From contig CM022667.1 of the NCBI GenBank assembly GCA_012295275.1, forward strand, positions 3,038,001 through 3,102,000: DNA of 64,000 nucleotides. The letters are read 5' to 3'. The stretch is from Chrysomallon squamiferum. Taxonomy: Eukaryota; Animalia; Mollusca. The notes beneath the pieces were generated by a model. The model searched no databases and was not told the DNA's origin. It saw nothing but the letters and a program-made list of their open reading frames with translations. This document shows, one piece after another, positions 174 to 64,000 of the stretch. The translations under genes were made by a program, and so were the position numbers. Numbering within the stretch: the stretch's first letter is position 1; the number at the start of each line of letters is the position of its first letter.

Positions 174-405
174 TTAAACAGACGAATCTCGCACGGACTT
201 GGGCGGTTTAAGAAATCCAATCCGACGTAGATATCTGACAATAAAGGGTGTGGCAGTTAAGGTGATTCCAATTCGAACAGGGGCAAACACTTTGTGCACT
301 GCATAGGCTACTACAAAAGTACCAGCACCAGCCGCTAGTTTCGACTGGAGGAAAGTTTCGGCCACGCCCACTTTCTGCATCATTCCCACCACATCAATCC
401 CGCTG

Positions 406-2723: not shown

Positions 2724-5000
2724 CGCTGTAACGTGTATTTGTGTATGCTAACGTTTGCTTAAACTGAATTAGAAACTCTTCTATTATTTATTTATTTATT
2801 TTTTTTATATCTTTTTATTTGTAGTTACTCGAATCTTTATCGATGCCATAATTAATTTTTTTTTACATGTTTCTTAACAAAACTCCGTCTTTAAAATGTC
2901 TTTCTCTTTGTTAAACCGGGGTTCTCAGTGGAAATACTCGATTTATCAGTCACCAAAATCAAGTGTGACGTACGAGAAATGCATGACGAAGTATCGGAAA
3001 ACGGACAGCTGACAACCAATATCCCATAACTGGGTAGACGTGTAAACAAGTTAACAAAGACTGCTGACGTTAACAATGAATCTTTTGTTAATGCGTTTAT
3101 ATGTACTGGTATTTGTACACCAGATGTTATGTGGTTTTTTTTGCATAAAACAGTATATAAAAAATTATTTACGTTGAAAAAAATTATTAATGATTATAAA
3201 AATAATAATAATAGTATTAATAAAAACTAATAACAACGATCAAAAGGAAAACCAATGACACAAAATCTGAAATGTAAGTTAAAATAAAGGTTATCGAACG
3301 ATGAAATCTGAAATTAAAGGGTTAGTCTTTATAATACAGGTTGAGAATCCTTTATCCGTAATACTTGGGACCGGAAGAGTTTCAGATTTCGGAATATTTC
3401 GGATTTTGGAATATAGAGATGAGAATAAAAGACATTTCTAAATATGAACTCTTATTTGTTTTTCATATGCAGCTTACGCAGATAGTCGGCAGGATTTTGT
3501 TAAATAATACTTTTAATCATTTTGTGAATAAAAATGCTGTTTGCGTATGAAAACTCTAAGATATTATTATTTCTGCTGCTCGGAAAAAGGTTCGGTATTC
3601 GGATAAGGAATCCCCAGCCTGTACCTTCACCATACTGGCGTGTTAATTTATTATTATCAATTTTTTTTTTTTTTTTTTTTTCATTTCTTTTCTGAAATAA
3701 CTGAAATAAGCATGCGATATCAATTGTTAAGAGACATTATACCTCTTTTCTTTTCATCATGCGCCTTAACAAAAGTAACCAAATGATGTGACCATGACAG
3801 CCGTGCATGAACCATAGAACTATTTAGTTATATAAACAACTGAACGTGAAAATAATTTAAAAAAAATGGTGTTTGACGATGTGTAACATATTTTGAACCG
3901 AATGTACAAGGGAAAAAGAAAAGCTATTTTGATGACGTAACCATTTCCCTTATACTGACGATGACAGAATCTAGTTCAGTTGTTAAAGGCGATGATAAAA
4001 AACGCAACAAGCCGAAGTAACAGTCTCTAAATGAACTGACATTTAGGACATCCATGGCCATCCATGCACCATGCAGTTAAAACGTCAGTGAACTCAGACA
4101 CAACTCTGACATTTAGAGACAAACAAGAGTGAGACAGAGAGAAGCGTGCTGTTTAAGAGAACCAATACCTTGAGACGGCCACATAGAAACCTCCTAACGA
4201 CGCTAGGGACAAAGCCACATGAAAAACTATGACCGTCGCCCCATACTCTTTAACAGCTCGCTTCAGCTTCTGCGCTTGCGTGATTTGCGTGTTCAGTGTT
4301 TTTTCTGTTTCTGTCTCTTCAGTACGCACCTTTGGGTTTCTGTCAGCGGGCGCCTGGGCTCGGGCCGACGTCGAGAAGCTGGACTTGGGCTGGTAGTTCT
4401 GGACGACCTTCCTGATGAGCAGCTCGTGCTCGCTGAAGATCTCCTGCAGCGTCCTCTTGCCCTGCAGGCCCTGCAGCTCGTCCATGCACTCGACGAAGCC
4501 GAACTCGTGGCACTTCTCCAGCCACAGCTTGAAGCGGTCGCAGTCGTCGCCCTGGATGCCCTGCGTGCACGGCGAGTGGAAGTCGAGGGAGTAGTCGTCG
4601 TCGTCCACGCCCTTGATGTAGTGGCCTTCTTGGTCGGTGTGGTGGGCGACCGCCTCTTTGTACTTCTTGGCGATTTCGACGATGAGCTTCTCTTGCTCCT
4701 GCAGGACGTCCGACAGCGTCTTCCTCCCAGACTGGATCCCCTGCAGCTGCTCGTCGCAGTTCTCCACGCCGAACCTGCGACATCGTTCTATCCACATGAG
4801 GAACGTCGCGCAGTCGTCCCCCTGCACGCCCTGGGGGGACGGGCCAGCGCCTATTTCAGTGCGAGCCTGTGCGGCGATGCCGCGGGCTGGGACGAAGTTG
4901 AACACCGGGTTAGCTGCAAGAAAATCAATACGTGTGTGTAAATAAATAGTTTAAAAAAAACAAACAAGCGACTGAATGATGATGATGATAATAATAATAA

Positions 5001-5031
<31 letters not shown>

Positions 5032-5316
5032 AAAATATACATTACAAAAAACAAATACAAAAAAAAAAAAAAAAAGCTATTTGTGCAATCCTTTATTTAG
5101 CAATAAAACCTCTCTCACATAGAGAAATCTAGGCTGGTTTGAATGTCTACTACTTAGTCACTATGCTAAGATAAGAAAATAAACTGTCATGTCTGACTTA
5201 GTTAAAATAAGCTGAACTCAACCAACTGTAACACAGGTTGGTCCGAAGTAAGAAAATTATAGTTTTATGTTTAAAAGATAAATTTTAAAAACGTTAAAAA
5301 ATAATTTTTATTATTC

Positions 5317-5356
<40 letters not shown>

Positions 5357-5362
5357 GTTATG

Positions 5363-5395
<33 letters not shown>

Positions 5396-5588
5396 TCTAG
5401 AATATTTGAATGATTTTTTTCTTTCTTTCTTTTTTTTATGAACTGAAATTATTATTATTATTATTATTATTTATTCTCGTGAAATTATACAATGGAATAA
5501 AATACATTTTCTATATTTACTGGAACGTCTTACCGTTGACTAAAAATACGATGGTTTTTTTTTTGGTTGCCTTTTGTTTCTTTTTTAG

Positions 5589-5619
<31 letters not shown>

Positions 5620-6389
5620 CAATAACAATAATAAAGTCTTATACATTACAATTATGATGTTATTCATTTGTTTCACTAAAACGGGACATTTTAATTTTTA
5701 AACTTGTTGATTAAAAATGTCAACGCTGTGGAAATATTTAGTTATACATTCAATGAACCCGGAGGAAAAACGCTTGCAAAAAAAAAAAAAAAAAAAAAAA
5801 AAAATTACATATAAATTAAAATAAACAAGTAGTTGGTTACTGCAGACTGGAAACATAACTGAACACTGAATGTGACCCAAACAGTTAGTGAAGTGACACA
5901 TATACGAGGTCACTGACTTGTTTATCGGCTGTTGTTTTTAACTGGGTCACACTTTCAGCAATAAAACAAAAACACTGTTTTATCAGTATGACGTCGTTAA
6001 TCTAAAGCGCGACATGATGGCACCCCGTAAGTAACCAGCGATTAAGAGTGGGAAATGTTCTTTGTGGCAATTTCAAATTAAGGAAAAATGGGACACTCGG
6101 TGGTACGCATTTTAGCCTCTGGGTAAAACGGGGGGCAATAAACCGTATCGAAGTAATACCGGTACGAAATGCTTTGTTAGTTATTTTATTAACAGAGAAA
6201 AAAACCGGTGGCTAGGCAGGGTACATTATGGGTACATATGAACATACAGATTTGTTTTAGTATTGTTTTTCCCCCCTTTTTTTTTTTTTTTTTTTTGACA
6301 TTGATGAACAAGATGTTGCGTCCAGATACATTACTCGACACTCGGTATTTATTTAAATTATTACAAATAAAATAATTAATTGATTAAAA

Positions 6390-6420
<31 letters not shown>

Positions 6421-7030
6421 ATCATTGGTTATTTACTTCTTCTCTTCAGTTTAATTCTGTTCATTAATATTTCGAATTAGTTTATATTTAATCTGCTTTT
6501 TTGATTGTTGTTGGTTGGTTTACTGATTACTATTATTTTATAATCGTTATCACTTACTATGATAATCAAAATATGAAGGATCTACATATAAATATTTTAC
6601 AACTTATTATCAGTTTGATGGAATTATTTAAATATTAAATATGAACTCACAACTGCTTGAAAAATCTACTTAATAACCAATTATACTGTTTGACAATGAA
6701 ATATTTGCCAAAGTCAAACTGTATGGTTGGAAAAAAAAAAAATAAAGCATTACCTTGACCTTTCTGAAGAAGAAAGCCATCACGTACACTCGTCAATACT
6801 GTATATAGCGTCCGTCCGGCGTCAAAAAGAAAGACTGTTTTCAGCGGTCTGTTTTCAGATCCGAAGCAAACTCTGTTTTCTGCCACCACTTTCCGTCTGC
6901 TCGTTCCATTAATCTGTGAATTGTCCGAAAACCAGGCCACAGAACATTTTGTCAGATTTACTGACATTTGTGACCGCTGTGAAAGACATGTAATAAACTT
7001 GGATGTCGTACCGCAGATATGTCGTGCCAT
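174..7030 (-). CDS. FAM210B: FAM210B-like mitochondrial protein (DUF1279) with an extra N-terminal tandem Cys-rich domain; 3 exons, ~416 aa
   Basis: Exons 7030-6754 (CAAG|gtaatg, phase 1), 4913-4169 (cttgcag|...AG|gtattg, phase 2) and 402-174 join in frame (1251 nt). The C-terminus (KEYGATVIVFHVALSLASLGGFYVAVSSGIDVVGMMQKVG...SKLAAGAGTFVVAYAVHKVFAPVRIGITLTATPFIVRYLRRIGFLKPP) closely matches vertebrate FAM210B. Exon 1 starts with an R/S/T-rich, acid-poor stretch resembling a presequence. Alternative ATG at 7036. Confidence 0.9.
2647..2742. repeat. Near-perfect palindrome with a (TA)n centre
   Basis: acaaatacacgtttcagcgtaa-(ta)n-ttacgctgtaacgtgtatttgt; the arms are reverse complements with one mismatch. 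Lies in FAM210B intron 2. Confidence 0.85.
3337..3621 (+). mobile_element. Non-autonomous pogo/Tigger-like DNA transposon (MITE), resembling Tigger4/Zombi
   Basis: TA|CAGGTTGAGAATCCTTTATCCG...CGGATAAGGAATCCCCAGCCTG|TA: imperfect terminal inverted repeats with TA target duplication and internal TTTCGGA repeats. Family assignment is from my recollection of the Tigger4 consensus, not a search. Confidence 0.7.
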
Positions 7031-7123
7031 TATCATCGTGTACAGTTTTTCACATCTGTATGGTAACTCCTGTCTAACAAAAATAACGACAACGAAGGAT
7101 AAACAACTTGTCACACAAAGCGC

Positions 7124-7163
7124 GATTGATTAGCTAAACCAACCGGTGTCCGCTGCTTTTATA
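7124..7163 (-). promoter_or_regulatory. TATA box (TATAAAA, 7163-7157) with an Inr-like TCAATC about 30 bp downstream; FAM210B-like core promoter
   Basis: The minus strand reads gggTATAAAAgcagcggacaccggttggtttagctaaTCAATCgc, about 100-130 bp upstream of the ATG. Confidence 0.5.
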
Positions 7164-7978
7164 CCCTGGAGAAACATAACTCGTGCGTAACAAGTTCCCC
7201 GTAATATTTTGTTTCGTTTCCGTTTTAAATTGAAAGACGCCAGTGTACTTTAACCTTCTATCTTTCAAATTATTATTGTATTCAGGTCATATTTTGAATA
7301 TAGTAATAAAGAAAAATATAATTTATGATTTTGTTTATTTAGATACCTATCTAAACGTAATGTTCAATATTTTTGACAGTAATATAAAAAGGTTAGAATG
7401 TAATTAATTAAAAAACATATATTAATTTAAAATAACATTATTAGCAAATTTAAAAAAAAAAAAAAAAAATTGAAACAAAACACAGAATCATTTTTTCTAC
7501 AATGTAACGAAATTTACCAGGAAAAAAAAGTCTGTTAGGCAATAAAAGTATCAGACGATTTCAATATAGTGTGTAATAAATGTCACACGGTAAAGTTTTT
7601 GTTTACACCGACAGAAGTCATACTTAGGCCCAACCCTTCTGGGTAAGCAAAAGGTGGATTTCGTGACCGACGACACATCTTTGAATTAACAAGGAACTGG
7701 TTTTCCACATGCTGCCGGACACGTTGTCGCAAATACAGTCTAAAACTTATTCGAGATGTGCGTGCGTGAGTGTAGGCATAAACTATATGTTTTTCTTTTT
7801 GTCGCCTAGAAGAATAACCATAAAACCTTTTAAAATTACATCATCTACACCGGTTGCATACGTGTAGGACGGGTGAAATATATAGCTTTGAAGATTTGAG
7901 GAATTTCTGTATTTAACAATAATGGACTAAATAAAATAAATAAAGGAAATAAGTAAAACATATACAGACAATTTAAAA

Positions 7979-8026
<48 letters not shown>

Positions 8027-8049
8027 ATAAACTTTAATGGATTGTGAAA

Positions 8050-8270
8050 CAACAACAACAGCAACAATAATAAGTAATAACTGTAGTAATTATTATGATA
8101 AAATAATACAATAAAATAAACAATAAAAAACAACGTAAACTGGAACAAAGGTTTCATTCAGATAAGTAAACAGCCAAATAATAGACTCGAGCCACTTTGT
8201 GGGTAATACCTTCTCTTTCATAGTAAACAACCTGTTATTTGTAAATATTCGAGGCTATTAATGGACTACA

Positions 8271-8320
<50 letters not shown>

Positions 8321-8520
8321 GGAACAAGATCAGTACCAATAATAATAATAAAAGTAATAGCAGTTGTAGTTATTATTATAAAATAATAAAATAAAATAAA
8401 CAATAAGAAACAAAGCAAACTGGAACAAAAGCTTCAGGTATGTAAATAGCCAAACAATGGATTCGGGCCACCCGTGTGTGTAATGCCTTCTCTTTCAGGG
8501 TAAACAACCTGTTATTCTGT
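8050..8520. repeat. Diverged tandem duplication (~190-bp shared core, period ~280 bp) with (CAA)n between the copies
   Basis: Both copies share aaactggaacaaa...cagcc/tagccaaa...ccttctctttca..gtaaacaacctgttatt. Confidence 0.7.
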
Positions 8521-8764
8521 CTGTTGAAAGACTTGACAGAGAGTCTGCATGTCCGCGTGCACGTACTCACATAAACATGACCATGCGATAATAACAAAAT
8601 GCATTTAGCAAAGTCATCTGGTACACTTCAGGTAACGACAATGGAATTTAATAAAAAAAAATAACGTTATCGATGTAAGGAAGACTACAACAGTCATGAA
8701 ACAATTAAGTAAATAAACTGGAAAATAAGCACTCGTTTGGTGTTTCGGAATACTTCAGGGACTT

Positions 8765-8809
<45 letters not shown>

Positions 8810-9562
8810 TAATAATTAATAATAAATAAATAAATAGATAAATAAATAAAAATAAAATAAAATAAAATTAAAATAAAATAAATCCAGAAACATATTTTTA
8901 AAAATAAAATAAAATTTTAAAAAATCCCCTATTACACCCGTATCCAATCAAATACACTCCCACACACAACCCACCCTAATCCACATTTATAACTATGTAC
9001 CCATTAAACAGTTATTAAAATAACGCTTATACACACTTCCATACATAAAATAGATATTAGTAAAACACTCCCATAAACACGTCACCCATGATTACATAGG
9101 TAAACACACACACACAAACAGTACTCCACCCAGCGTTACACATCCTCCTACCCCCAGAACACTTGCGTAAGAGAAACAGTATAGGTTATTTTAGAGGTAC
9201 GGTGAACCGTACCAACGGCTTTTATTACACGTTTTGTCAACCGAGCCTAGTAATAGAGCGGGGTTAGACATATAAACAAGGATTAAGTAGGTAAGGTGGC
9301 AACCGGGAGCTTTCGAGTCAAAATAACGATGAGCTCAGATTAATTCCGAGTAAAGTAAACTGATTGGCCTGTTGCTTATGTGGTGAAAGGTTGTCGTCTG
9401 CGGGTTCAATTCACCGCGAAGGAACCCGCATCATTTTGTACGAATTTTAATCAGTGTGTAGTAAAAGTTGTTGTCTGCGTGGAAATAAATAATAATTTAA
9501 TTTAAAGCTAAACTTTTTTTAAAATTATTTTGTTTTAATTAATTTCTTTTTTAATTTCTAAA

Positions 9563-9593
<31 letters not shown>

Positions 9594-10136
9594 TTTTTTT
9601 TAATATTTTAAAAAAATAAATTATTGTAAAAAATTCATTAAATAAAAAATAATTAGCAAAATGAAAAGGGTGTGTTGGGGGAAGATAAAAGAAAAAGATA
9701 AAAAAAAAAAAAAGAGCTGAATTCTCGAACATCGATTTTATTTAGAAAACGACTGATATGAACAATAAAATAAATATTAATATAAAAAAGCATAATGTAA
9801 TGAAAAATAATATTGCTGGAAAGATTAAAATAACTATATATATATATATAAAGTATTATAAAATAAAATATGTAAAAAAAGTAAATTAATAAAATAGCAA
9901 TAAAATAAATACCCTCAGGCTACTAGATCATAGTCATTATCGTAATGATAATTATTATCATCATCATCAGCAGCAAATATTGGATTTATAAACACAATAC
10001 TACTATTATAATATTTTGTTGTTTTTTCTTTTATTGATTATCTGCATGAAAATAAATATTAAAAAAAAAAAAAAAAATGCTCAACAATGATTACTTTTTA
10101 ATAAATTGATTTCTGTTCTGCAAGTTTCTTTGAAGA

Positions 10137-10212
<76 letters not shown>

Positions 10213-10625
10213 CATCACAAGTTACATTATTATATATAATCAAAAATGTGGAAGATGTTTGGTCTTTTTCAAAAGAACTAATTCAAAAATAACATCATCA
10301 GGTTTCCGTCATTTTACTGCTGCAACATGGGAATATTTTCAAAACCTACACACACAAACACACGGACACACAGAAAGGTCACAAAGATAGCTCCCAAGAT
10401 GTTAATGCCAAAGCAAAGAATGTTTTCGCGAGCACTCTATATTTCAAGACATCCTTCAGGCATAGAAATATAAATATATACATGTATACTCCTTAGCAAC
10501 CAGAAAGCGATGTGTTATTCCGGCCTGAAGGTGTTAACTTTAAACACACGCGAATAATCAAATTTTACCATCATTTGTTCTAAAAATAGATCTTGTAGAA
10601 AATATAATTTTTCATAAATGATTCC

Positions 10626-11673
10626 TCATGCTTTCTTTGATTCATCGTCTTCGGCTATCAGAGATTTAATAAGCTCTTCGTGTTTGTTGTAAATTTCTTG
10701 CACCGAATTTTCTCCTATGCGGATGCCGTTTAACCTATCAATGCACTTCCAGAAACCAAACTGGTGACAACGTTGCAGCCACAACTTAAACTGCGAGCAG
10801 TCGTCTCCCTGAATTCCTTGCGGGCAAAGAGTATCCAGCTGATAAACGAAATCAGTGTCATCTTCTTTGTTTTGATTTTTTAACGCCTCGGTCTTCTGTA
10901 TTATTTTGCGAATAAACTCCTCTTGCTCCTCGAGAACCTGACCCAGCGTTTTTCGTCCAGACTTGATGGCTTCCAACTGTTCATCGCAGTCCACTGCGCC
11001 GTACTTTCGGCATCTGCCGATCCATACTAGGAAGGATGCACAGTCGTCTCCTTGGATACCCTGAACTGATGGCTCCAGTCCTGTTTTAGCAGAGGACGAT
11101 GATAAACACGTCCCAGAAGACACAAAATTCCTATTGGAGTTACCTGTTCGTAATCAAATTGTTACAAAACTTTTAATACAGTGTTTATGTATGCGAGTGG
11201 GTTTGTGGGTGTATGTGTGCGCGTGCGCTTATGCTCATAGCTTATAACTATTTTGGCTGTGCACGGGAGTGCTGAATTAATTACAGATTTGGTGCAACAG
11301 CAAATATCATGCCTTAGAATGTAAAAGATCGGATGCGTGGAGTTTACCATTTTAAATCTTTTCCTTTATTAATTATCCTAATTATTTTGGAAGCCAATGA
11401 AATGTTGAAAAACGTGCATAATTTTAGTGCAGGAGTGAACAAGACGACAATACCTGGACTTGTTGGCAAACAGTTTCCATCTATCTCTCTTGTCAGTGGC
11501 GTTGGTGAAGATTCTCCAGAATAAAGAGACGAAGCGGGCGATTCACTTTCGTTAATACCAACATGCAATTCATCACTAGCTGTAATCGGAAAGCCTAACG
11601 AGGACGACGAGTATTTATTACGACATGAACGTTTCAGAAGGCACGTAACAAGCCTGGTGGCTGTTCGCGACAT
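10626..11673 (-). CDS. Uncharacterised 245-aa protein: putative mitochondrial presequence plus two tandem QGIQGDDC-x9-C-x7-C repeats; paralogue of the N-terminal half of the FAM210B-like gene
   Basis: Exon 1 11673-11454 (CCAG|gtattg, phase 1) and exon 2 11143-10626 (gaacag|GT) total 738 nt in frame. Exon 2 aligns without gaps to FAM210B-like exon 2 from the splice acceptor (GNSNRNFV...PSVQGIQGDDC vs ANPVFNFV...PSPQGVQGDDC). The N-terminus TATRLVTCLLKRS resembles TTSKFITCLSQRS. Confidence 0.8.
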
Positions 11674-17300: not shown

Positions 17301-19571
17301 GGGACTGGTTTGAAACTAAACCATAGCACATATTTCAAAAAACTAATTTTATCAGGAAGACTAAAAATATTTTCCCTTGTAACAGATTTAGATTCATATA
17401 AAACAAAACACTGTTTTAACTTCATAGGTCTGTATTAGATCACTCATCATTACCTTAATGTGATGAAGAAATTTTTTAAGAAAGAAATTTCAAGATGAAA
17501 GTTACCTTTATTTGTCTGCCTCTGAACAATGATTCATCAAGAGCCATTGCAGTCGCTACAGAGTCCTTGTCAGCAAATTCAACGTAGGCAAATCTGAATT
17601 ACACACAACAAAAAGAAAAAATAACAAACACCAAGTATTTATGACATCCTTACATAATCCAAAAATGCTTTACAAATTTCTTAATCACACCAAATATTTA
17701 TAGCATGTCTGCATCTTCCAAAATGGTTTACAAATTAACACCAATCCACTTAAACATAACAGTGTGAATTTTGTTTTTAATCACAGTTCCATGAAGATAA
17801 TCTCTGTAGTTACAAAAATATTACAATACATTAACTGATGATATGTATGAAATTACAAAAATCAGCAATATTCAGGATCAGAAAGAAGTTTTAAATCATG
17901 TGCAATCTTTAGTCTAACATGCAAAACATCATTTCCTGAATATCAAATAATTTGAAAAAAAAAAAAAAAATGTTTTGGCATCTGGAATAAACAAATTCCA
18001 GAAATTATTGTTACAAATTATTCTTTCAAAAAAGTATTTTTCTACTCGAGTCTGCCATGGATGTCTTATTAAATTGCTTACAACACCTTTACACGGTGTG
18101 AAAACATACTACTTACAGATGTGAAAAAATAATATGAAAACTAGTAAGATTTATATTAATTAAGGTAGAATACCCTTTTGGATGGCCTGTGAACTTGTCA
18201 CACAGAATCGTCACTCGATTCACTGAACCGCAGCCATGAAAGTGCTGTTCCAACTCTTCTGCAGCCGCACCGTAATCAACCTACAATAACATCGCATCCT
18301 TGTACAAAACAAAATGTATCAACAAAACATTCGAAAGCAAATGACTTTTCTGTGTGAGAAAGACAGAGTTTTTTGAAACATGGAAAATGATAACAGAATG
18401 CTTTCGTTTTCTTTTTTTGATCTCTTTGAAAAATGAAATTTATTAATATTTATTAATACTCTAAAAGTACTGAAACTCATATGTATTAATTACTTTTAAG
18501 ATGAATCCAGTAAATTATTTCTATATCCACAGATCAAAGCATATGAATAATACTTTCAATTTTAGTATCAAAATTTTTTTTTTTTTAAACAAATTACAAG
18601 CATCAAAACCATTAACTTACATTTCCGACATATATTGATCTTGAATCTGCATCAACCTTTTCTTCTATTGTTGGAAATGTTGACGAGGATGCTTGAAATA
18701 AAATTGCAAAAATTATTTTTCATGTAAAACAAAGAACTAACAATTATGAGGAATACACCACATCTCACCCTGTATGCAAAGGTGTAACAACTTTTTAACA
18801 ATAACCTGAATAAATAAATCTGATGAACATTACATCATTATTAAATCTGGATTATTTCTGTGCAGCATACATTTAGATCATTTCCTTGCATAACCAGTGC
18901 TGCACATTAAGCACAGAGAAAAAAAATAATTAAAAAATAATTAAAAAATGCGTACGAGTTATATATAGAATTGAATTTTACAAGTAAAAGTTTTAACAAC
19001 ATACAGACTGATGATGAACTCATATTCATCTGTTTCTCCACTTCACTCTGCATTTCTTTCAACTTTTCAGCTTCTTCCTCCATTTCTTTGACTCTTGCTT
19101 TGATTGCTTCAAGTTCCTAAGGAAAACATTTTTTATTTATTTGCTGAGATTGATACTATGACGTATAAATATCGTGTACCTGTAACGTAGTCTTCACATT
19201 TATTTGCAATTATGGGTTTAAAAAATAAATAAATACATAATAAAAAAATTCCTCATTTAAAATAACTTGATTCCAAAAACCTACTAATAGCACTATTTTA
19301 TTAAACTCTATTTCTGTTATTCTTAATAATGTCTTTCTCCACGTTTTTAAGCTTTCTTTGTTTCAGATCAAATAATTAGTAGAATGAACGTACTTAATGA
19401 ATTAAAAATACAAACCGGATCTTCAACTGCACCATCTTCAGTGGCAGCGGTATTATTATCGACATCATTTCCTTCATTTTCGAACGACGTTGTGTCGAAT
19501 TCTGTGTTTTCTTCTTGGAAGCTTTCGTTCTCGTCATTAACTAATTCCGTCATATTTTTGTCTAATCTCAT
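14397..19571 (-). CDS. PABPN1: Nuclear poly(A)-binding protein PABPN1/Pabp2; 7 coding exons
   Basis: Exons 19571(or 19553)-19416, 19116-19005, 18691-18621, 18280-18174, 17593-17506, 15295-15171 and 14430-14397; all GT-AG and in frame. Translation gives the [26 protein letters not shown] coiled coil, the RRM ([48 protein letters not shown]...[13 protein letters not shown]), an RG-rich tail and the YYSPY* end. Confidence 0.96.
15527..15599 (-). ncRNA. Box C/D snoRNA, SNORD104/snR58-like, copy 1 (PABPN1 intron 5)
   Basis: Sense: TATTCAGGA-A-ATGATGT(C)-TTTGCATGTTAGACT-A-AAGA(D')-TTACAA-ATGATTT(C')-AATTTTGTTT-CTGA(D)-TCCTGAATA. It has a 9-bp terminal stem and a D' guide complementary to 28S AGUCUAACAUGC. 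Confidence 0.85.
16025..16094 (-). ncRNA. Box C/D snoRNA, SNORD104/snR58-like, copy 2 (PABPN1 intron 5)
   Basis: Same C/D'/C'/D boxes, identical guide GCATGTTAGACT, TTCAGGA/TCCTGAA terminal stem. Confidence 0.85.
16131..16198. mobile_element. Possible small Tc1/pogo-type MITE remnant (hairpin)
   Basis: TA|CAGTCAAATCTCATTATAA...TTATAACGAGTTTGATGG|TA: imperfect inverted ends flanked by TA. Confidence 0.35.
16590..16663 (-). ncRNA. Box C/D snoRNA, SNORD104/snR58-like, copy 3 (PABPN1 intron 5)
   Basis: Same boxes and guide; 9-bp terminal stem TATTCAGGA/TCCTGAATA. Confidence 0.85.
17075..17152 (-). ncRNA. Box C/D snoRNA, SNORD104/snR58-like, copy 4 (PABPN1 intron 5)
   Basis: Same boxes and guide; 11-bp terminal stem AATGTTCAGGA/TCCTGAACATT, whose outer pairs differ compensatorily from copies 1, 3 and 5. 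Confidence 0.85.
17868..17943 (-). ncRNA. Box C/D snoRNA, SNORD104/snR58-like, copy 5 (PABPN1 intron 4)
   Basis: Same boxes and guide; 10-bp terminal stem ATATTCAGGA/TCCTGAATAT. Confidence 0.85.
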
Positions 19572-20015
19572 ACCATTACAAATTATAAATTAATGATAGA
19601 CGATTGAAATAAAGGTTTCAAATCTTGTAATAATATAACAACAATAAAACAGATTACTTATCGTTCATTAAAAAGGCAGGATGCTAAAAGATAAAACAGA
19701 TTTTTAAAGTAAAACGAATTTTTAAAACTATGGCGTCCCTAAAGGTCCGTTTCCGGTAGATAGATTAAGAGTTATTTCCCTTAATTTCTTTATATTACCT
19801 TCGTTGATTGAAGAAAATTATTTTAGTCTTTGATATTATAAAACCTTTTAAAATATATTAAAATATTTTTGAGGCGACGACACTCAATTATTTTACCTTA
19901 AAAAAAGGATAACATACATAATGTCGATGACTTTGTACAAACAGATATTTCAATAGAATATTTATTTACAATTTAATCATATGCAAATCGAATAGCCTCT
20001 CCAAAGACTACACTT

Positions 20016-37034: not shown

Positions 37035-40000
37035 ATGGGAGAATCTGGTAAGTGAATACAGCATGATTCCTTTTGTGTTTGTTTTACGGACTTAGCTTCT
37101 GACCGAAAGAAAAAATGCGTTCAGTGAACTTCACTGAACTCTGATTTATATTTGCTATTTCCAATGTTTAGTGAAAACTTTTTTCTGACAAAAATATATT
37201 CTGATATTTGAAAAAAAAAATAAATGAAAAAAAAAAAAAAAAGAAAGAAACTTTTTAAAATAAAACAGATTTTGTTAAAACTTTTTTCTGTTACAGATGT
37301 AATATTCATTGATTTTTTAAAATTTTATTTCGTTTAATATTCTGCTAGTAAATTTATTAGATTTATGATTATTTTTCCAAAGAAAATTGAAATAACACTA
37401 ATAGAAAGTAAAAAGTGATATCTATTTTTAACATTGTTTAAAAAATTAATAACAAATAAATTTATTTATTTATTTTTAAATTTTTAAATTTTTTTTATTA
37501 TACTAGATCTATAAAAATAAGTAATAAAAACCAAATTGATTTAAAAAAATTAAATAGTGAATTAATAGTTAATTTTTGGTTAATATAATTTTTATATTCA
37601 CTACTTTAAATATGGTTCAACCAATTTTTTACATCCAATACTTCAATCTAAGCTAGGAAGGAATGGGAAAAATATTTAATTAAATAAAAAAAATAAAGAT
37701 CATAATGAAGAATTATGTTTGTGAAAACAATATTATATTAAGGAGACAGGAATCATGTCCCTACAAATGTTATTAAAATAAATAAGTTTGGTTTCCAATA
37801 GAATTTATGAACTGGATGATATAAAGTTCAAATTACAAATTTTTTGAAAATATTATTCTTTTTTTTTTTTTAGATCCACCCAAAATGAACACAAATATAA
37901 TAATTTGACAAAGCACTTGTTTTTTTTTTTGCAGCAGAGGAATTGAAAATAAAAATGCAGTCTACAGAAAGCATTGTGAACCATGTTTCTGGGACACACA
38001 ATGGTTTTGCTGGGATGGAAAACCATGTGGATTCGGGAGGGGATCGTGCCAATGGAAATGCAAACCACATTTCCTCTTCACAAAAACACGAAGGTTCATC
38101 ATCAAGTTCTAAACATAAAGAAGGAAGCGGCAGCAGCAGCAGCTCAAAGCACAAGGAACATCATTCCTCTAAACATCGTGATGACCACAAAAGCAAACAC
38201 AAAGAAGGTCATAGTTCGTCAAGCAGCAAATCAAAGGATGGAAGCTCTAGTTCGTCGAGCAAGCAAAAAGATGGAAGTTCCAGCTCTCCGAGCAAGTCGT
38301 CCAGCTTGGAGAAACACAAAGAAAGTAGTCATTCCAAGGACAAACATCACAGTTCATCAAAACATTCTAATTCTGAGCACAAACTGCACAGTAAGTCCTC
38401 ATCCTCAGACAAGCACAAAGATGGGAGCAGTAAAACCTCATCATCAGCAGATAAACCAAAAGAAGGAGTCAGCAAGTCATCGTCATCATCATTGTCAGTG
38501 GAAAAACAAAAAGATGGGAGCGTCAAAACATCGTCAAGTGACAAGCACAAAGAGGGAAGTGGCAAGACCTCATCATCATCGTCGAGCTGACAAACATCGG
38601 GATCCCAGCAGTAAACATTCTTCTGACAAACACAACAGCACTAAGTCATCATCGTCATCAGCGTTAGATAAACATAAAGATGGTTCAAGCAGCAAATCAT
38701 CCACTTCCATCGACAAACACAAAGAGTCCAGTAGCAAACATTCATCTGACAAGCACAAAGACAGCAGCACCAAATCATCTTCGACTCACGAGAAACACAA
38801 AGAAGGAAGCAGTAAATCAGCATCATCATCTGAGAAACATAAATCGTCGTCATCAGACAAACACAGGGATGGCAGCAGCAAGTCTCATTCCTCTTCATCG
38901 GACAAACATAAAGACGGCAGCAGTAAAATTTCATCTGAAAAAGTCAAGGAGTTGATCAAGTCTCCAGACAAGAAGGATCGTCCAAAAGATTCCGACAAAC
39001 ACAGAGACAAATCAAAAGATGAAAGCCGTTCGAAATCCCACAACAAGCTGACCAGTCCAAGCAAAGATGCTATTAAGACTGAGCCTGTGAGAACAATGTT
39101 GATGTGAAGCCAAAGAAAGAAGATGATATGCAGCCATTTGTTAAAATGGAGAACATGGAATGTGAGGATTCAGCTGGAGATGATGTTAAGAAAGCTCCTT
39201 CTAGTGATGAAGATGAAGTGCCTCTGGTAAGATTTTATTTATCACTGTAAATAGTTCTTTTATTTGTGCATTAAAAATCATTAATTATTTAACTATATTA
39301 TCTCTTTCTCTGTTAGATTAATTTATTGAATCATGATGTATGCTTATATTATTGTTTTTTAAAATATCATTAGACGTGTTAAAAATAATGAAAATAATAA
39401 TTTAAAAAAATGAAACCAACCCCCCCAAAAAACAATCCTCAGAAATAGCATTACAATACTACAAAAAATGTGTGTTTTAATAACTTGAAAAACATTTTTC
39501 ATCAGTTACATTATTACACTGAAGGGGCCAGGTCTTCAGAATTTGTTACTTAAAGACGTACTTAAAAACATACAGCCTTTTAGATTGCTGATAGCTAACA
39601 GTGTGAGTGAAGCAAGTTTTGCAAATAATAAAACTGTTAATACTTTCAACAGTCTGCACGAATGAAAAAGGAGGTTCCACCTGTCAAACATCAACGTGAA
39701 GAATCTTCCGATGATGAACCTTTATCAGCCAGGTGATAACAGTTTTTGAAAACATCCTTTTACATATATATGTATATATATATATCTTATTGAAGAAACT
39801 TATTATAATAAAAAGAAACATTAAAAGGTGAGTGCAGTATGATTATCAGTCAGATAATAATTTCAAAAAACATCAGGAATATTAAAAATTTAATTCCATT
39901 GTAGTTTGGAAATAATATAATGCTGTTGCTTGCTTTCTAATAAATAGTTTAATCAGTCATTTATTTTGAAGGAGTTGATTATGAACAACTGGATAAAAGA

Positions 40001-42902
40001 AATTTATTTTAATTTTTAATTTTTTCAGGATGGAAAAAGTAAAGAAGGTAAAGAAAGAGGTGAAAGATGAAGAAGAGGATTTCAAACCAACAAAGAAAAG
40101 AAAACTTGAAGATGAAGAAGAGGATTTCAAACCAACAAAGAAAAGAAAACTTGAAGATGAAGACGAGGATTTCAAACCAACAAAGAAAAGAAAACACGAA
40201 GATGATGACGAGTTTGAACCAGCTGTAAGATATTTCTGATAGTTCTAGGATCAAATCTCCTCTGTGATTCATCTGAATATAATGTAGACCAGTGGTACTT
40301 AAGTATTTTTTAAAATTATTTTTTATAATTTTTTTTTTTTTTTTTTTTTTGCTTCTGCTAGGACCCCTTATTAAGTAATTTTAAAGATTGGCACCACAGG
40401 AAGTATTCTGAATATTAATCTAATTATCAAATATGAAACCCAGCTATTGCTAAATTGAATTAAAATGTCTCTTGCTACCATTTAATCAAAAACATATGAC
40501 CAGATTTTTTTTTTTTTTTAATTTTTTTTTTTTTTTTGCAACATGTAGGTGAAGAAAAAGAAAAAGAAAATTAAGACCAAAGGTACAATAGATGAAACAA
40601 AACCACAGAAAGGAAAGAAAAAAAATGAAGAAGAACAACAAGTCTGGAAATGGTAAAAACGTGATTCTTGAACATTTTTAGTCATTTAGTGTTAAAATAA
40701 TTATACACACAAGGAAAATTAGTTAATTATGAAATATGTTTCTTTCGTTGAGTTGTAACGCTACTAATGGCGAATGTATTTTTTAAAACATTTTTTTTTT
40801 TTTCCCCCAGAAACTTACTAATTTTTAAGTCTGGTAAATTCAGAAAATTATTGCACAAAACTAAACGAGACTTTTTTGAATTTTTTTTTCTGCAGGTGGG
40901 AAGAGGAAAAGAGGGATGACGGGATCAAGTGGACATTTCTGGAACACAAGGGCCCTGTGTTTGCTCCCTTATATGAACGACTCCCGAAAAATGTCAAATT
41001 TTACTACGATGGTAAGTCACTTAAAACTGATGCTAGTTTCTTTTCAGACTGTAGCATCACCTTTCTCTTTCACTGAAATAATTTCTAATTTTTGAAGTGT
41101 ATTTAAAAAAAAAAAAAATGTTCTTTTATTTTATGGCTTCATACATTTTTTTTTAAATTTTTTTTATATTTATTATCTTTTTATATATGACTAAAATTAC
41201 TATTTAGTTTTTAATCTTTTATTAAATGTGATTGAATAAACATGTATAGAGACGCAAGCACGCACGCAACTGGATTTATATAAATAAGCTGTTGATTTAA
41301 AACATTTTTAATTGCCATGGATACAGAAGCTAAAAGTTTACAGTTTTCCTACTATGGTCTGCTTCTAAATATTGTCTCATGTTAGTGATGTCATAGGTAA
41401 ATGAAAATACACCACTGTTGAAGATAATGATGTTACTATGGATACAAAAGAATAAAGTTTACAGTTTTCCATAGTTTGATCCTTGAGTTAATTAATTACC
41501 TATGTCGATGATGTCATAAAGGAGATTCTAATAATGTTGACGTTTCGGTCATAGGGCGGGAAGTCGAGCTTTCCGAAGCTGCAGAAGAAGTTGCTGGTTT
41601 TTACGCAAAGATGTTGGACCACGATTACACAACAAAGGATGTGTTCAACACCAATTTCTTCAGAGACTGGAGAAAGGTAGGGACGAAGTGACTTCAGAAA
41701 GTTACATTTTTGGTGATATTTAAAAACTTTGTCAGATCATTGCATTTAAGTATTGAAATTATCGTCTTCGTCCAATTCAAGGCTTGTAAAAATTTTTTAA
41801 TGCTTTAGCAATTTAATTTTGCATTTAGTTGAAAAAGGTACCTGATGAACATAACAATATCTTTATTAAAAAGTCTGTTGGTTATGTATTTGCAATATAA
41901 AATGTAAAGTGGTGTTCATTTAATTCTGCATTTAAAAGATAGCGTGTCTGTTTTTGTGTTATACACATACATATATAACAATATCTTTAGAAAATACCTA
42001 CTGGAATATATTACTGGATAGTTTAAATAAATAAAGCAAAAAAAAAGTTTAATTTAATTGAGCTGAAAAATATTCTGTATGCATAATAATATGTTGCTAT
42101 GTATATATTTACAGTAGTTTGAAAAATAATAAAACATTGTGCATTTAATTCAGCATTTAGATGACAGTACTAGATATTGCATTTAAAGAACAGTGTATCA
42201 AAAATTGAAAAAAATTAATTCTTTTGTTTGTCAAAGGTGATGACAAAAGATGAAAGAGAGGTGATTACTGATCTCAAGAAATGTAATTTTAAAGAGATGC
42301 ACCAGTTCTATCTGAAACAGTCAGAAGAGAGAAAGAACCGAACCAAAGAACAGAAACAGGTAAATAAAGATTTTGTCTTTCACTGTACAGTACTTGTTAC
42401 ATTCTGTATGTCAAACCATTAAGAATTATTTAAAATTACAATCTTTTATTTACATGTCTGCATACCACAAACTGACATTTGAAATGATGTAAGGAGATGC
42501 ACAAATTGAATTGTTAAAATATATATATTTTTGTTTTTGAAGGAACTGAAACGCCAAAATGAAGAAGTAACGAAGGAATATGGATTCTGCATAATAGATG
42601 GTCACAAAGAAAAAATAGGAAACTTCAGGATAGAACCCCCAGGCTTGTTCAGGGGGAGAGGGGACCACCCTAAGCAGGGCAGACTAAAAAAACGGGTGGA
42701 GGCTGAGGAGGTGATTATTAACTGCAGCAAGTAAGTTTGTTTTTAATCTTTTTTTTTTTAGTTTCTGATTAAATTTTGTATCATTTGCTTGAAGTTTTAC
42801 TTGTGTTCATTCTTTCTTTTCTAGGTTATTTAGTTTTTTGTTGCTAGCATTTTAGAATACATAACGTTTTTGATACTCCTTTTATATAACTTTTGTATTC
42901 AG

Positions 42903-42943
<41 letters not shown>

Positions 42944-45900
42944 CATGTTTATTTTTAGATTACATTTTAATGTTAGATAACAAAGTAATTATGAAGATTT
43001 TTATTATTTAAATTTTTTTTTTAATAGAGACTCCAAAATTCCTGTCGCACCTGAAGGTCACAAATGGAAAGAAGTCCGACATGACAACTCAGTATGTTTT
43101 ATTACATTTTTAACTCCTAAATACTGGTGTCAGCTAACCATATTTTGATATTGAAAACTCTGAGACTGCTTTCAGCAACTATTTTTATTGCAGGAATAAA
43201 CTTGTATATATATTTTTTTGGCAGTGAAACACGATTTCATTTTGAAAACAGCTTGAATGCGTTCAAAAGATACTTTTTATTTAGCATGCTCAATTAGGAA
43301 TAAAATTGACAGTTAAAATAATAAATTAATTTTATTATGCTCATATGCATGTATGCAGAGAGAAAGGCAGAGACAGACACACACGAGAAAGAAATATTTA
43401 TGATATAAAACATAAAATGGAAAGGTGGAATATTTAAAAAGAATAAAATATAAAAATGTTTGTTGTCAAATTGTAGGTAACGTGGCTGGCTAGTTGGACA
43501 GAAAACATTCAAGGAGCCACGAAATATGTCATGTTGAATGCTGCATCCAAACTTAAGGTATGTGTAGATACATGAAAATATTCATCCAGTATTATTTAAT
43601 TAGTTACGTTTGTTGTCTTATGTCATTATGACATTTATAACTATCTGGAAATGTATTATTAAAGTTTAATATATTGAAGAAACTTAGATGGTGTCAAAAA
43701 AAAAAAAAAATTGAATAAATAAATTTTAAAAAGTTAAATCTATTTTAAAGGGAATTACAGTGGATAATTGAGAAAAATATAAAGTTTTTAATTCAATGTG
43801 TTATTGTGGTTTTAGGGGGAGAAAGATTGGCAGAAATACGAAATTGCAAGAAAACTTCACAAATGTGTGGACAAAATCCGAGCAACGTACAGAGAAGACT
43901 GGAAATCAAAGGAGATGAGAGTGAGACAGAGAGCGGTGGCACTCTACTTCATTGACAAGGTAAATCTGAGACTTTTAGATAAGCAGTAATGCCAGAGAAA
44001 GATTTAAAAAAAAAAAAAAAAAAAATCAGTTAAATTGCTGCCTAGAAAGATGATGTGATTTAGTTTATTTGTTTTCTTTGGATTATTTCCAATTCAGGTT
44101 ACAGACTGAGTTATCAAGTTCATTGTTCTGTTTTAGACAGACTGGAGTGATTGTTTGTGTACCCGTTTCCATGCTTCTAAGAAAACTGAATTACTTACAG
44201 TAGTTAAGTTACAAATCTGTTGTATTTTCACAAGCTGTTGCCATGGTTCCTGTACAAACTGCAGTATTTGTGATAGCGAGTTTAATACTTCAAAACCACT
44301 AAACTTAAGAACTAACCTAACATTAAACAGTGTGTTCTGTTGTGTATTTGTAATGTATTAATTAACGTGATGTTTTTTGTTTTTCAGCTTGCGCTAAGAG
44401 CTGGTAACGAGAAGGAGGAAGGTGAAACGGCAGACACAGTGGGCTGCTGCTCTCTGCGAGTTGAACATATCAAACTGTACAGTGAGAAAGACGGCAAAGA
44501 GTGTGTCGTCGAGTTCGATTTCCTCGGAAAAGATTCCATTCGCTACCAGAACAGCGTTCCTGTCGAGAAGCGAGTGTTCAAAAACCTGCAGCTCTTCATC
44601 GAGAACAAGCAACCCGAAGACGATCTCTTTGACAGGCTCAATGTACATAAATAATTTATGAAAAATAATTTTAATAAAAAAAAATAATTCAATTAATAAA
44701 ATTCATAAATGAAATTAATAAATCAAAACAAAATTAACATATACAGATAATAAAATTGAAAATAGGTACGTAAATAATGTAATAAAATAATAAAATAAAC
44801 AATAAATTGATAACTAACCTCCCCCAAAATAATAAATTTTTACGAAATTTTAAACTGATGTAAATAAATATATTTCATTTGTTTGCAATATATAATTTGT
44901 TTGCTAGCGTACTGATGTATCTCTTGTTAGTTATCATTAAAATGAACACAGCTGGGTATATGCATATATACATGAGCATGTATTTATCGGCAGTTATTTC
45001 GACAAACAAGTGCATGCATGCGCATAAACGCAGACACACATACAGAGAGAGAAAGTGATACATGAAATAAGATTAGTTTTTGTTTTATTGCAGACTACAC
45101 TGATGAACAAACATTTACATGACCTGATGGAAGGCCTGACAGCCAAAGTTTTCCGAACGTACAATGCCTCCAGAACCTTACAAGAACAGCTAGATTTACT
45201 TACAAATGGTGAGTTCGAACACAGAACAGAAACAGTAAATATAATTATTTGATGGTGTTAGTTATTTTATTTATAAGGATTTAAAAAATTTTTACTCTGA
45301 AAAATTCTAATAAAAAAATAAATACTATAACTTTTGTAGTGACTTGGGGTAGAATACTTTCATTTAAAGATTTGTGATTTTCAGCTTGTAATAAGTTTAA
45401 AAAAAAACCTACAAAAAGAATATGAAATACACCTAATAACAGACAGTATTAAAATAAGTTGAAGTTATTAACTGGCTACTGCTTCGTTAATCAGTACAAA
45501 TGGCAGCAGACTGTATAAATATTTATATAAAATTTAAAAATATCTGTAATTTTGTAGAGGAGGACGCCATTCCAGCCAAACTCTTATCTTACAATCGTGC
45601 AAACCGAGCAGTTGCTATTCTCTGCAACCATCAACGGTCAGCTCCAAAAACATTTGCTCAGTCGATGGAAAATCTCATAAACAAGGTAAAACATTTACTA
45701 ATTCATAACGTATTTAGTTCAGATGTAAATGTTTATAGTCTTTATAATATGTTTGTTATTTTGTTGTTGTAGTTAATTTGTTTGTTGCAGTTGTATGTTT
45801 TGTAACAAAAGTTAGTTTGTTCAAGTTCAGTGTCAGAATTGTAACTTGTTTACGTTGCCATAGTAATCTTGACATGTAGATAAGAATAAAATACAGCTGA

Positions 45901-55989: not shown

Positions 55990-64000
<8,011 letters not shown>

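Follow-up and report, generated by a model that had tools for sequence, protein, structure and literature searches.

Most documented examples of internal cleavage of mitochondrial precursors by MPP come from fungi and plants, and few from animals. In mammals, FAM210B has been linked to the import of iron into mitochondria and to ferrochelatase. To our knowledge, human FAM210B does not contain the Cys module described below. Tandem precursors cleaved by MPP include yeast Arg5,6 and Atp25, S. pombe Rsm22-Cox11, a rice RPS14 fusion and mammalian ACAD10 (PMC8734313, PMC11342911). MPP requires arginine at −2 and an aromatic residue at +1, and internal cleavage of Arg5,6 takes place at an RSY site (PMC8734313); ACAD10 is likewise cleaved internally (PMC11342911). 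S. pombe Aco2 joins an aconitase to a protein of the mitochondrial ribosome (10.1101/2019.12.16.879015). FAM210B has been placed in the inner membrane by a review (PMC9272004), which conflicts with the outer-membrane placement given, along with a 47-aa targeting sequence for the human protein, in PMC5520928. The N-terminus of FAM210A is reported to face the intermembrane space (PMC10564795). A literature search for FAM210B in molluscs found no paper and, judging by titles and the starts of abstracts, none of the papers listed, those on DUF1279 included, deals with the Cys domain.

Here we analyse a 64-kb stretch of Chrysomallon squamiferum DNA (the window) containing a FAM210B gene, gene A, and a stand-alone neighbour, gene B. 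We consider it probable that gene A is one gene with two mitochondrial products, and that its Cys module is released either through splicing or, as is likely, through cleavage by MPP at an internal site.

Results

Layout of genes A and B

A single ORF of gene A holds two Cys units and positions 1–34 of the FAM210 domain (Table 1), in agreement with the initial annotation, which had described a FAM210B gene carrying a Cys domain. Exon 1 is 45% identical to residues 1–98 of Gigantopelta P0105. The last exon, read in the FAM210 frame, matches PF06916 with an E-value of 4.7e-13 and is 88% identical to P0105 residues 340–415, compared with 38% for the other FAM210 gene of the window. The FAM210 domain occurs in the long isoform only, its two exon parts scoring 30.9 and 49.9 bits (Pfam cut-off 26).

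A six-frame HMM scan found exactly four units in the window. All four peptides previously quoted lie on the minus strand, with their QG at 4833, 4563, 11063 and 10820; the four copies proposed earlier are therefore present, and only the estimated length of about 58 aa needs revision, to 62–63 aa. Gene B, adjoining gene A, carries two units and no FAM210 sequence, as expected of the stand-alone paralogue that had been proposed. It clusters with P0001 and P0002 (100/99), with the A group as sister (100/99), and is a recent duplicate. The likeness of its candidate exon 1 to other first exons was equalled by 19–34 of 2000 shuffles, and a BLAST comparison of this exon with P0001 gave no match.

Table 1. 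Features of genes A and B, in positions of the window.
Feature	Position	Strand	Remarks
Gene A (FAM210B) exon 1	6754..7036	(-)	Basic, acid-free N-terminus; predicted mitochondrial presequence; ATG 7036 or 7030
Gene A exon 2, short-isoform extent	4330..4913	(-)	RNA contig ends 4330 and 4915; loose ends match last exon and exon 1
Putative presequence cleavage site R-G-I-A-A	4870..4884	(-)	Upstream of unit A1; inferred
Cys unit A1	4654..4842	(-)	63 aa; QG-x-QG peptide and three helices
Cys unit A2	4387..4572	(-)	62 aa; has additional Cys2
K-S-S-F-S-T-S, degenerate internal MPP-like motif	4366..4386	(-)	Fits loose pattern only; Gigantopelta counterpart R-D-F-S-T-S
Alternative 5′ splice donor AAG/GTGCGT	4324..4333	(-)	Cut 4330/4329, phase 0; 4/4 RNA runs
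FAM210 (DUF1279) domain, first part	4169..4272	(-)	Long isoform only; PF06916 positions 1-34, E 3.8e-7; donor AG/GTATTG at end
Gene A last exon	174..402	(-)	Long frame, FAM210 positions 36-88; short frame, R-D-stop, stop 396-394
Gene B candidate exon 1, presequence-like	11454..11673	(-)	Weak likeness to exon 1 of gene A and orthologues
Gene B coding exon	10626..11143	(-)	Acceptor 11143 or 11080; stops without any FAM210 sequence
Cys unit B1	10884..11072	(-)	
Cys unit B2	10641..10829	(-)	

An alternative donor removes the FAM210 domain

Transcripts were examined in four RNA runs, which are assembled contigs from one study. The predicted join of 6754 to 4913 is present in all four. The predicted join of 4169 to 402 appears in none; all four have 4330/402 in its place, contigs showing presence and not absence. 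The 4330/402 join shifts the frame and yields a 291-aa protein without FAM210, ending P-K-R-D-stop with the stop in the last exon. RNA depth is 341–852 across the 4330 join and 0–138 past 4330, but because all four runs are contigs from a single study the isoforms cannot be ranked by depth.

Four long/short homologue pairs share this switch and split at the same point: Gigantopelta X1/X2 (DPK/VRT versus DPK/WA-stop), a Sinanodonta pair (DDK/VG versus DDK/RD-stop), Lineus X1/X2 (EQS/VS versus EQS/RD-stop) and the pair P0109/P0015. The frame-shift dipeptide ends 12 of the 43 unit-bearing proteins that do not contain the FAM210 start, where 0.34 would be expected. The spliced short join was seen in contigs L001, L003 and L008, and GAG/GT stands at the short-join site in L002, L004, L006 and L007. 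A donor-like signature sought in the linker of the Octopus and Lingula long forms was absent. On sequence grounds the long form is also real: contig L005 has one ORF without an intron from the units through the complete FAM210 domain, PF06916 is matched by 42 of 83 homologues, and the last exon is conserved in the FAM210 frame.

Conservation and predicted structure of the Cys unit

Between A1 and B1, compared over 63 codons, pN is 0.22 and pS 0.81 (saturated). After removal of one intronic difference from 14 listed in the RNA contigs, 11 of 13 coding differences are synonymous, including 6 of 6 in the unit region; both replacements sit upstream of unit 1. These values bear out the purifying selection previously proposed for the units. 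Conservation of the Cys residues in orthologues was likewise confirmed. Across homologous units, with near-copies (including cluster mates P0021-35) removed before unit, motif and ending counts and P0097 left out as a chance repeat match, C11 is retained in 111/124, C21 in 120/124, C29 in 118/124 and W17 in 121/124. A fourth Cys to partner C11 would be expected at position 39, but 118/124 units have Gly there; the additional C2 occurs in 71/123. The supposed invariance of the D-D pair fails across the family (D9 72/123, D10 91/124), and a search for a conserved His across the 124 units found none, the best column reaching 29/124. Spacing is C-x9-C-x7-C in 89/124 units; 44/124 have three Cys.

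In a full-length homologue model (pTM 0.31), unit cores have pLDDT 83–95 and linkers low confidence. A helix-loop-helix hairpin is closed by C21 and C29. Because C11 and C21 share a helix and are ten residues apart, it is doubtful that one unit could form a three-Cys site. As the most likely role of the module we tentatively propose that the conserved Cys21 and Cys29, together with Cys11, bind a metal or an Fe-S cluster, in which case the module could be a small acidic iron- or redox-handling protein, its supply tied to the FAM210B scaffold.

The short splice could instead serve mainly to throttle FAM210B output; the module would then have no independent function and be either a passenger or a targeting region grown too large. 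The short join does put FAM210 out of frame and is frequent in databases, but the Cys, Trp and Gly residues are near-invariant from molluscs to a priapulid, the predicted structures show a confident three-helix fold, and three genomes have retained a stand-alone copy, pN lying far below pS. We regard a mere throttle as very improbable.

Predicted presequences and MPP-like sites flanking the module

The first 30 residues contain 4 K/R in gene A and 6 in gene B, with no D/E in either, which makes the mitochondrial location proposed for both probable; acid-free, basic first 30 residues are also found in most named homologues. A strict MPP-type motif, R-x-F/Y/L-S/C-S/T, follows the last unit in 27/47 proteins (shuffles: mean 0.3, maximum 3), and a looser motif precedes the first unit in 36 of the 40 proteins with an upstream box (mean 3.3, maximum 11); these shuffle counts are not probabilities, because the patterns were drawn after viewing these sequences and the rows are related. 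Neither pattern fits 18/47 proteins. Orthologue versions of the R-G-I-A-A site are RGIAT, RGIAA, RGLST and RSCST, and the internal site of the window itself has no arginine. The strict motif falls between the units and FAM210, where the presumed presequence of the FAM210A paralogue ends; FAM210A in the same window has R-S-Y-S-S about 45 aa upstream of its FAM210 domain. The linker between units and FAM210 varies from 24 to 174 aa.

In the model of the initial annotation the units remain bound covalently to FAM210B, the whole forming a membrane-anchored sensor, with the soluble paralogue as partner. That units and FAM210 domain share one ORF, that FAM210 is the only partner domain in 83 homologues, and that the internal site is degenerate in C. 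squamiferum and unmatched in the 18 proteins above would all suit such a tether. It is hard to reconcile with the observed splice, which removes FAM210, with a linker of variable length and low model confidence, and with the strict motif in more than half of the proteins, and we think it quite unlikely. The division into one membrane-anchored and one soluble protein is not supported either: since the observed spliced RNA of gene A is without FAM210, and since in the long forms an MPP-like site separates the two parts, a soluble module is probably a product of gene A itself.

The initial annotation had pointed to CX9C spacing as the signature of Mia40/CHCH substrates. An ITS-type pattern, Ar-x-x-Hy-Hy-x-x-C, ends at C21 in 102/124 units and at C29 in none, and agrees with the published consensus (PMC8061763, PMC9041937); the pattern is of low specificity, and a single CX9C followed by CX7C is not a twin CX9C. 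The module may be a substrate of Mia40 whose disulfides are structural, residing in the intermembrane space or, like Mrp10, becoming oxidised in transit; it would then be a CHCH-like assembly or chaperone factor, not a metal binder. The hairpin closed by C21 and C29 and the reported orientation of FAM210A (PMC10564795) would fit. We nonetheless find this unlikely: the ITS pattern can fit any Cys-ended amphipathic helix, the spacing departs from twin CX9C, 44/124 units have three Cys, the precursors have presequence-like N-termini and MPP-like sites, and a KD scan of P0007 and P0001 found no hydrophobic stop-transfer segment in the short form. Pfam searches of the window and homologues gave no match to CHCH.

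Range and family searches

The Cys domain occurs in FAM210B of gastropods, bivalves, octopus, Lingula, Lineus and Priapulus, a range read from the few named matches among 111 proteins; no vertebrate is among the named matches. The description "lineage-specific" is thus true of gene B only, since the domain-FAM210B gene extends to Priapulus, Lingula and Lineus. The domain is indeed unnamed: searches with Pfam, NCBIfam, PDB, Foldseek, VIA and ESM Atlas found neither a named family nor a solved fold that it matches. Pfam and NCBIfam gave no genuine family for the unit; PDB sequence searches returned 0 and 2 rows, the 2 by chance; Foldseek found nothing at E<=0.001 and ESM Atlas no usable match. 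VIA with the tandem model reached a best Z of 5.0, with solved CHCH folds absent among the matches listed, and with the full-length model in effect probed the FAM210 helices only. We do not claim a new fold from these two models.

Gly_rich_SFCGS (PF14272 / TIGR03577) was rejected: the SFCGS motif is absent, only profile positions ~43–114 (mostly 70–114) are matched, and profile-profile comparison gave a probability of 5% over 33 columns with 74 bacterial members. P0044 exceeds the Pfam cut-off for this family on whole-protein score, no single stretch passing, as does P0051 for UBA_N4BP1_C (PF23054, 47 positions), which is weakly matched in 14/83 proteins over one helix (positions 11–37), and here too no individual stretch passed. 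Other large fusion partners were sought only within the range 633–2000 aa and none was found, which is weak evidence. Thirteen pattern matches to prokaryotic genome contigs included no confirmed relative, and plasmids gave none.

Discussion

The demonstrated part of our model comprises the splice and its conservation, together with the layout of domains and the gene duplication. In the remainder, a presequence would direct the gene A product into mitochondria, MPP would cut on both sides of the Cys module, the released module would be a soluble matrix product, and the balance between module and FAM210B would depend on splice choice. Protostome FAM210B genes might even be an ancient animal mitochondrial polyprotein locus, from which MPP frees up to three products (a conserved VSL..MQ.NVP..NMPGGG peptide, a Cys metalloprotein of a new family, and FAM210B). 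A conserved frame-shifting splice would favour the Cys protein as main product, and this protein would serve the invertebrate matrix as an iron or Fe-S carrier that has escaped recognition and that vertebrates do not have; we offer this larger picture tentatively and judge it doubtful.

A conserved animal example of predicted internal cleavage, combined with a splice switch, would allow a direct test of how two products of one gene are tuned. The protein family looks abundant in mitochondria and is masked in annotation as "FAM210B" or "uncharacterized". Since mammalian FAM210B is linked to iron import and ferrochelatase, the fact that protostome genes encode a Cys module together with it offers a testable lead on the role of this poorly understood scaffold. 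Gene B, the duplicate, neatly exemplifies a splice isoform turned into its own gene.

Compared with known systems, gene A shares with vertebrate FAM210B the C-terminal FAM210 domain (PF06916, DUF1279). Like twin CX9C (CHCH) proteins, the unit combines a helix bearing one CX9C with an ITS-like face and a predicted hairpin of helices; it differs in that its second spacing is CX7C with the middle Cys common to both, in its third helix and QG-x-QG leader, and in the presequence-like N-terminus of the protein. Aco2 of S. pombe is likewise a fused gene, and it too yields a shortened mRNA that covers just the N-terminal part; its short form arises by internal polyadenylation, that of gene A by an alternative 5′ donor and a frame shift into the last exon. 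With the MPP-cleaved tandem precursors the FAM210B long forms would share the plan of a single precursor that starts with a presequence, here a predicted one, and has an R −2/aromatic +1 motif, here a putative one, where two folded parts meet. The FAM210B case differs from them in being animal-wide and conserved, with cleavage predicted only, in having an unnamed domain as N-terminal partner, and in the second internal site of many homologues, which gives three predicted pieces.

Cys units and their setting

All four Cys-rich peptides quoted in the initial annotation are present on the minus strand, two in the FAM210B gene (gene A; units A1, A2) and two in its stand-alone neighbour (gene B; B1, B2), and an HMM scan of the 64-kb window found no fifth copy. 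In line with the proposed fusion to FAM210B, the gene A units and positions 1–34 of the FAM210 domain (PF06916) share one ORF, with the remainder of the domain in the last exon. Purifying selection, also proposed, is borne out by A1 versus B1 (pS 0.81, saturated; pN 0.22, with few replacements). RNA-contig differences are synonymous in 11 of 13 cases, and in 6 of 6 inside the unit region.

The window is AT-rich (GC 25–39%). GC3 is 0.93 in the gene A Cys units vs 0.50 in gene B; elsewhere in gene A it is 0.39 in exon 1, 0.43 in the last exon and 0.49 in the sequence immediately beyond the 4330 donor. This step falls at the alternative donor, and candidate causes are codon selection or biased gene conversion.

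By Pfam, the window contains two FAM210 genes and topoisomerase I. The second, FAM210A-like gene has an intron inside its FAM210 domain in the same phase as that of FAM210B. Neighbouring exons resemble PABPN1 and SPT16, and gave no significant Pfam match. Topoisomerase I (PF01028) has a long, Ser/Lys/His-rich N-terminus. The gastropod Gigantopelta aegis is the source of the closest named relatives of gene A and gene B proteins alike.

Coordinates of features in the window
Feature	Position	Strand	Remark
Gene A exon 1	6754–7036	-	
Gene A exon 2	from 4913	-	
Gene A last exon	402–174	-	remainder of FAM210 domain
Gene A units, QG motif starts	4833, 4563	-	
Gene A Cys units, GC3 interval	4387–4842	-	
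Gene B units, QG motif starts	11063, 10820	-	
Gene B candidate exon 1	11454–11673	-	
FAM210A-like gene	24933–23535	-	Pfam; ~17 kb from FAM210B gene, same strand
PABPN1-like exons	18907–19589	-	
SPT16-like exons	37904–46432	+	
Topoisomerase I exons	58628–58933	+	

A switch between long and short forms

RNA evidence covers 4090–4935 in four runs from a single study. The predicted exon 1 join (6754/4913) was recovered in all four, while the predicted join of units to FAM210 (4169/402) appeared in none; contigs extend beyond 4330 in three runs, and these read across 4169 into the intron with no loose end. In 4/4 runs a contig departs at 4330, at a donor (AAG/GTGCGT) 161 bases upstream of the one first proposed, and continues with the opening letters of the last exon. 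The 4330/402 splice shifts the frame to P-K-R-D-stop, giving a short form of 291 aa without the FAM210 domain. Contig depth, which cannot rank isoforms, was 341–852 on the short join vs 0–138 beyond. The long form, units plus FAM210, is likely still made, since the last exon is 88% conserved when read in the FAM210 frame and one ORF spans units and FAM210 in L005, a contig from another animal.

Comparison across homologues shows conservation of this switch, with four cluster pairs (Gigantopelta, Sinanodonta, Lineus and one unnamed) diverging here into a long and a short form. Short-form tails (WA, WP, WN, RD or RH, then stop) correspond to the last-exon start S-G-I/L-D one base out of frame, and DNA contigs L001, L003 and L008 display the off-frame join directly. 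GAG/GT occupies the switch site in L002, L004, L006 and L007, and is absent there from L005, L012 and L014. The frame-shift ending occurs in 12 of 43 FAM-less unit proteins (0.34 expected), and 32 of the 47 linkers contain the donor-like pattern [EKQ]-V-[GSR] (shuffles: mean 7.2, maximum 17).

Gene B ends after its second unit. A tree of 47 two-unit proteins joins it to P0001 and P0002 (100/99), and the gene A group (100/99) is their sister; gene B is therefore a within-lineage duplicate that fixes the short product. Exon 1 of P0001 is clearly homologous to that of gene A (E 4e-11); the gene B candidate is only weakly similar to exon 1 of gene A and its orthologues. The longest contig has an identical length for the stand-alone and fused genes in P0001/P0007 (59,883,994) and P0002/P0106 (2,597,079), consistent with linkage in both relatives.

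Range and fold of the unit

Homologue searches returned 6, 14 and 74 matches; 84 proteins were screened, and 77 gave 124 near-complete units over 63 columns (two units in 47 proteins, one in 30). The most conserved positions are Q7 and G8 (118/123 each), C11, W17, C21 and C29 (kept in 111, 121, 120 and 118 of the 124 units, respectively), and G39, E49 and Q50. FAM210 is the sole partner domain (42/83 proteins, Pfam). Most matches carry no species name, and the range rests on the named carriers: Gigantopelta, Elysia (2), Lymnaea, Solemya, Sinanodonta, Octopus, Lingula, Lineus and Priapulus. Because these include Priapulus, the unit-FAM210B gene predates the lophotrochozoan/ecdysozoan split if that record is right.

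The suggestion that the unit lies outside named families held, as searches of Pfam, NCBIfam, PDB, Foldseek, VIA and ESM Atlas produced no convincing family or fold match. AlphaFold models the tandem units with three helices each (pLDDT 76, pTM 0.57); in the model of a full-length homologue, confidence is high for the units but low for the linkers (pTM 0.31). We do not claim a new fold, because small helical bundles score generically.

In L010–L015 introns interrupt the unit and the C21–C29 loop is longer, which suggests a further animal lineage. P0055, P0061 and P0093 form a divergent multi-unit subfamily in which some units have the QG-x-QG leader and C11/C29 replaced; no FAM210 domain was seen in these three. 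Free QG-x-QG/QD pentapeptides, up to 7 per protein, recur in linkers outside folded units (e.g., P0020, P0047, P0058, P0064), possibly as docking motifs or decayed repeats.

A predicted internal cleavage signal

MPP cleaves with R at -2 and an aromatic residue at +1, and an internal RSY is cut in yeast Arg5,6 (PMC8734313); mammalian ACAD10 is described as cleaved internally at MPP consensus sites (PMC11342911). R-x-[FYL]-[SC]-[ST] lies between the last unit and FAM210 in 27 of 47 proteins (shuffles: mean 0.3, maximum 3), a count to be read knowing that the patterns were picked after viewing the sequences and that the rows are related; 18 of the 47 linkers carry no match, strict or loose. A similar motif precedes the first unit in 36 of 40 proteins having an upstream conserved box (shuffle mean 3.3). 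In the window's FAM210A, R-S-Y-S-S lies some 45 residues ahead of the FAM210 domain, the same place as the FAM210B motif. We infer that the internal motif was the end of the FAM210B presequence; the module sits upstream of it and would be released by cleavage. Counting against cleavage, gene A's own copy, K-S-S-F-S-T-S, lacks the arginine, which Gigantopelta retains.

The upstream box (~55 aa; VSL..MQ.NVP..H.NMPGGG..KY..HP) occurs in about half of homologues (e.g., P0100, P0104, P0108, P0089). It is absent from the window, has no Pfam match and is poorly modelled. It terminates in an MPP-like motif and may be a third released product.

Possible function and precedents

In mammals FAM210B has been tied to ferrochelatase and iron import (review, PMC9272004). 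It also curbs OMA1 activation (PMC10723637), and its location is disputed, inner (PMC9272004) vs outer membrane (PMC5520928). The FAM210A N-terminus has been placed in the intermembrane space (PMC10564795).

The short form has a predicted presequence and no hydrophobic segment, and should reach the matrix. Among conserved matrix Cys, metal binding is commoner than disulfides. For this reason, and given the mild acidity of the units (net charge -2.2 on average), we favour a metal or Fe-S binder, a step that taken alone we put at well below even odds. The chief alternative, a Mia40 substrate with a disulfide, draws on an ITS-like pattern whose end falls at C21 in 102 of the 124 units.

Titles and abstract openings yielded no paper on the Cys unit domain. 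The domain is unnamed; its splice and cleavage logic has precedents. The gene A long form follows the logic of MPP-cut tandem precursors, although here cleavage is only predicted, and the short form follows that of S. pombe Aco2, described as a fused gene that also gives a truncated mRNA (10.1101/2019.12.16.879015).
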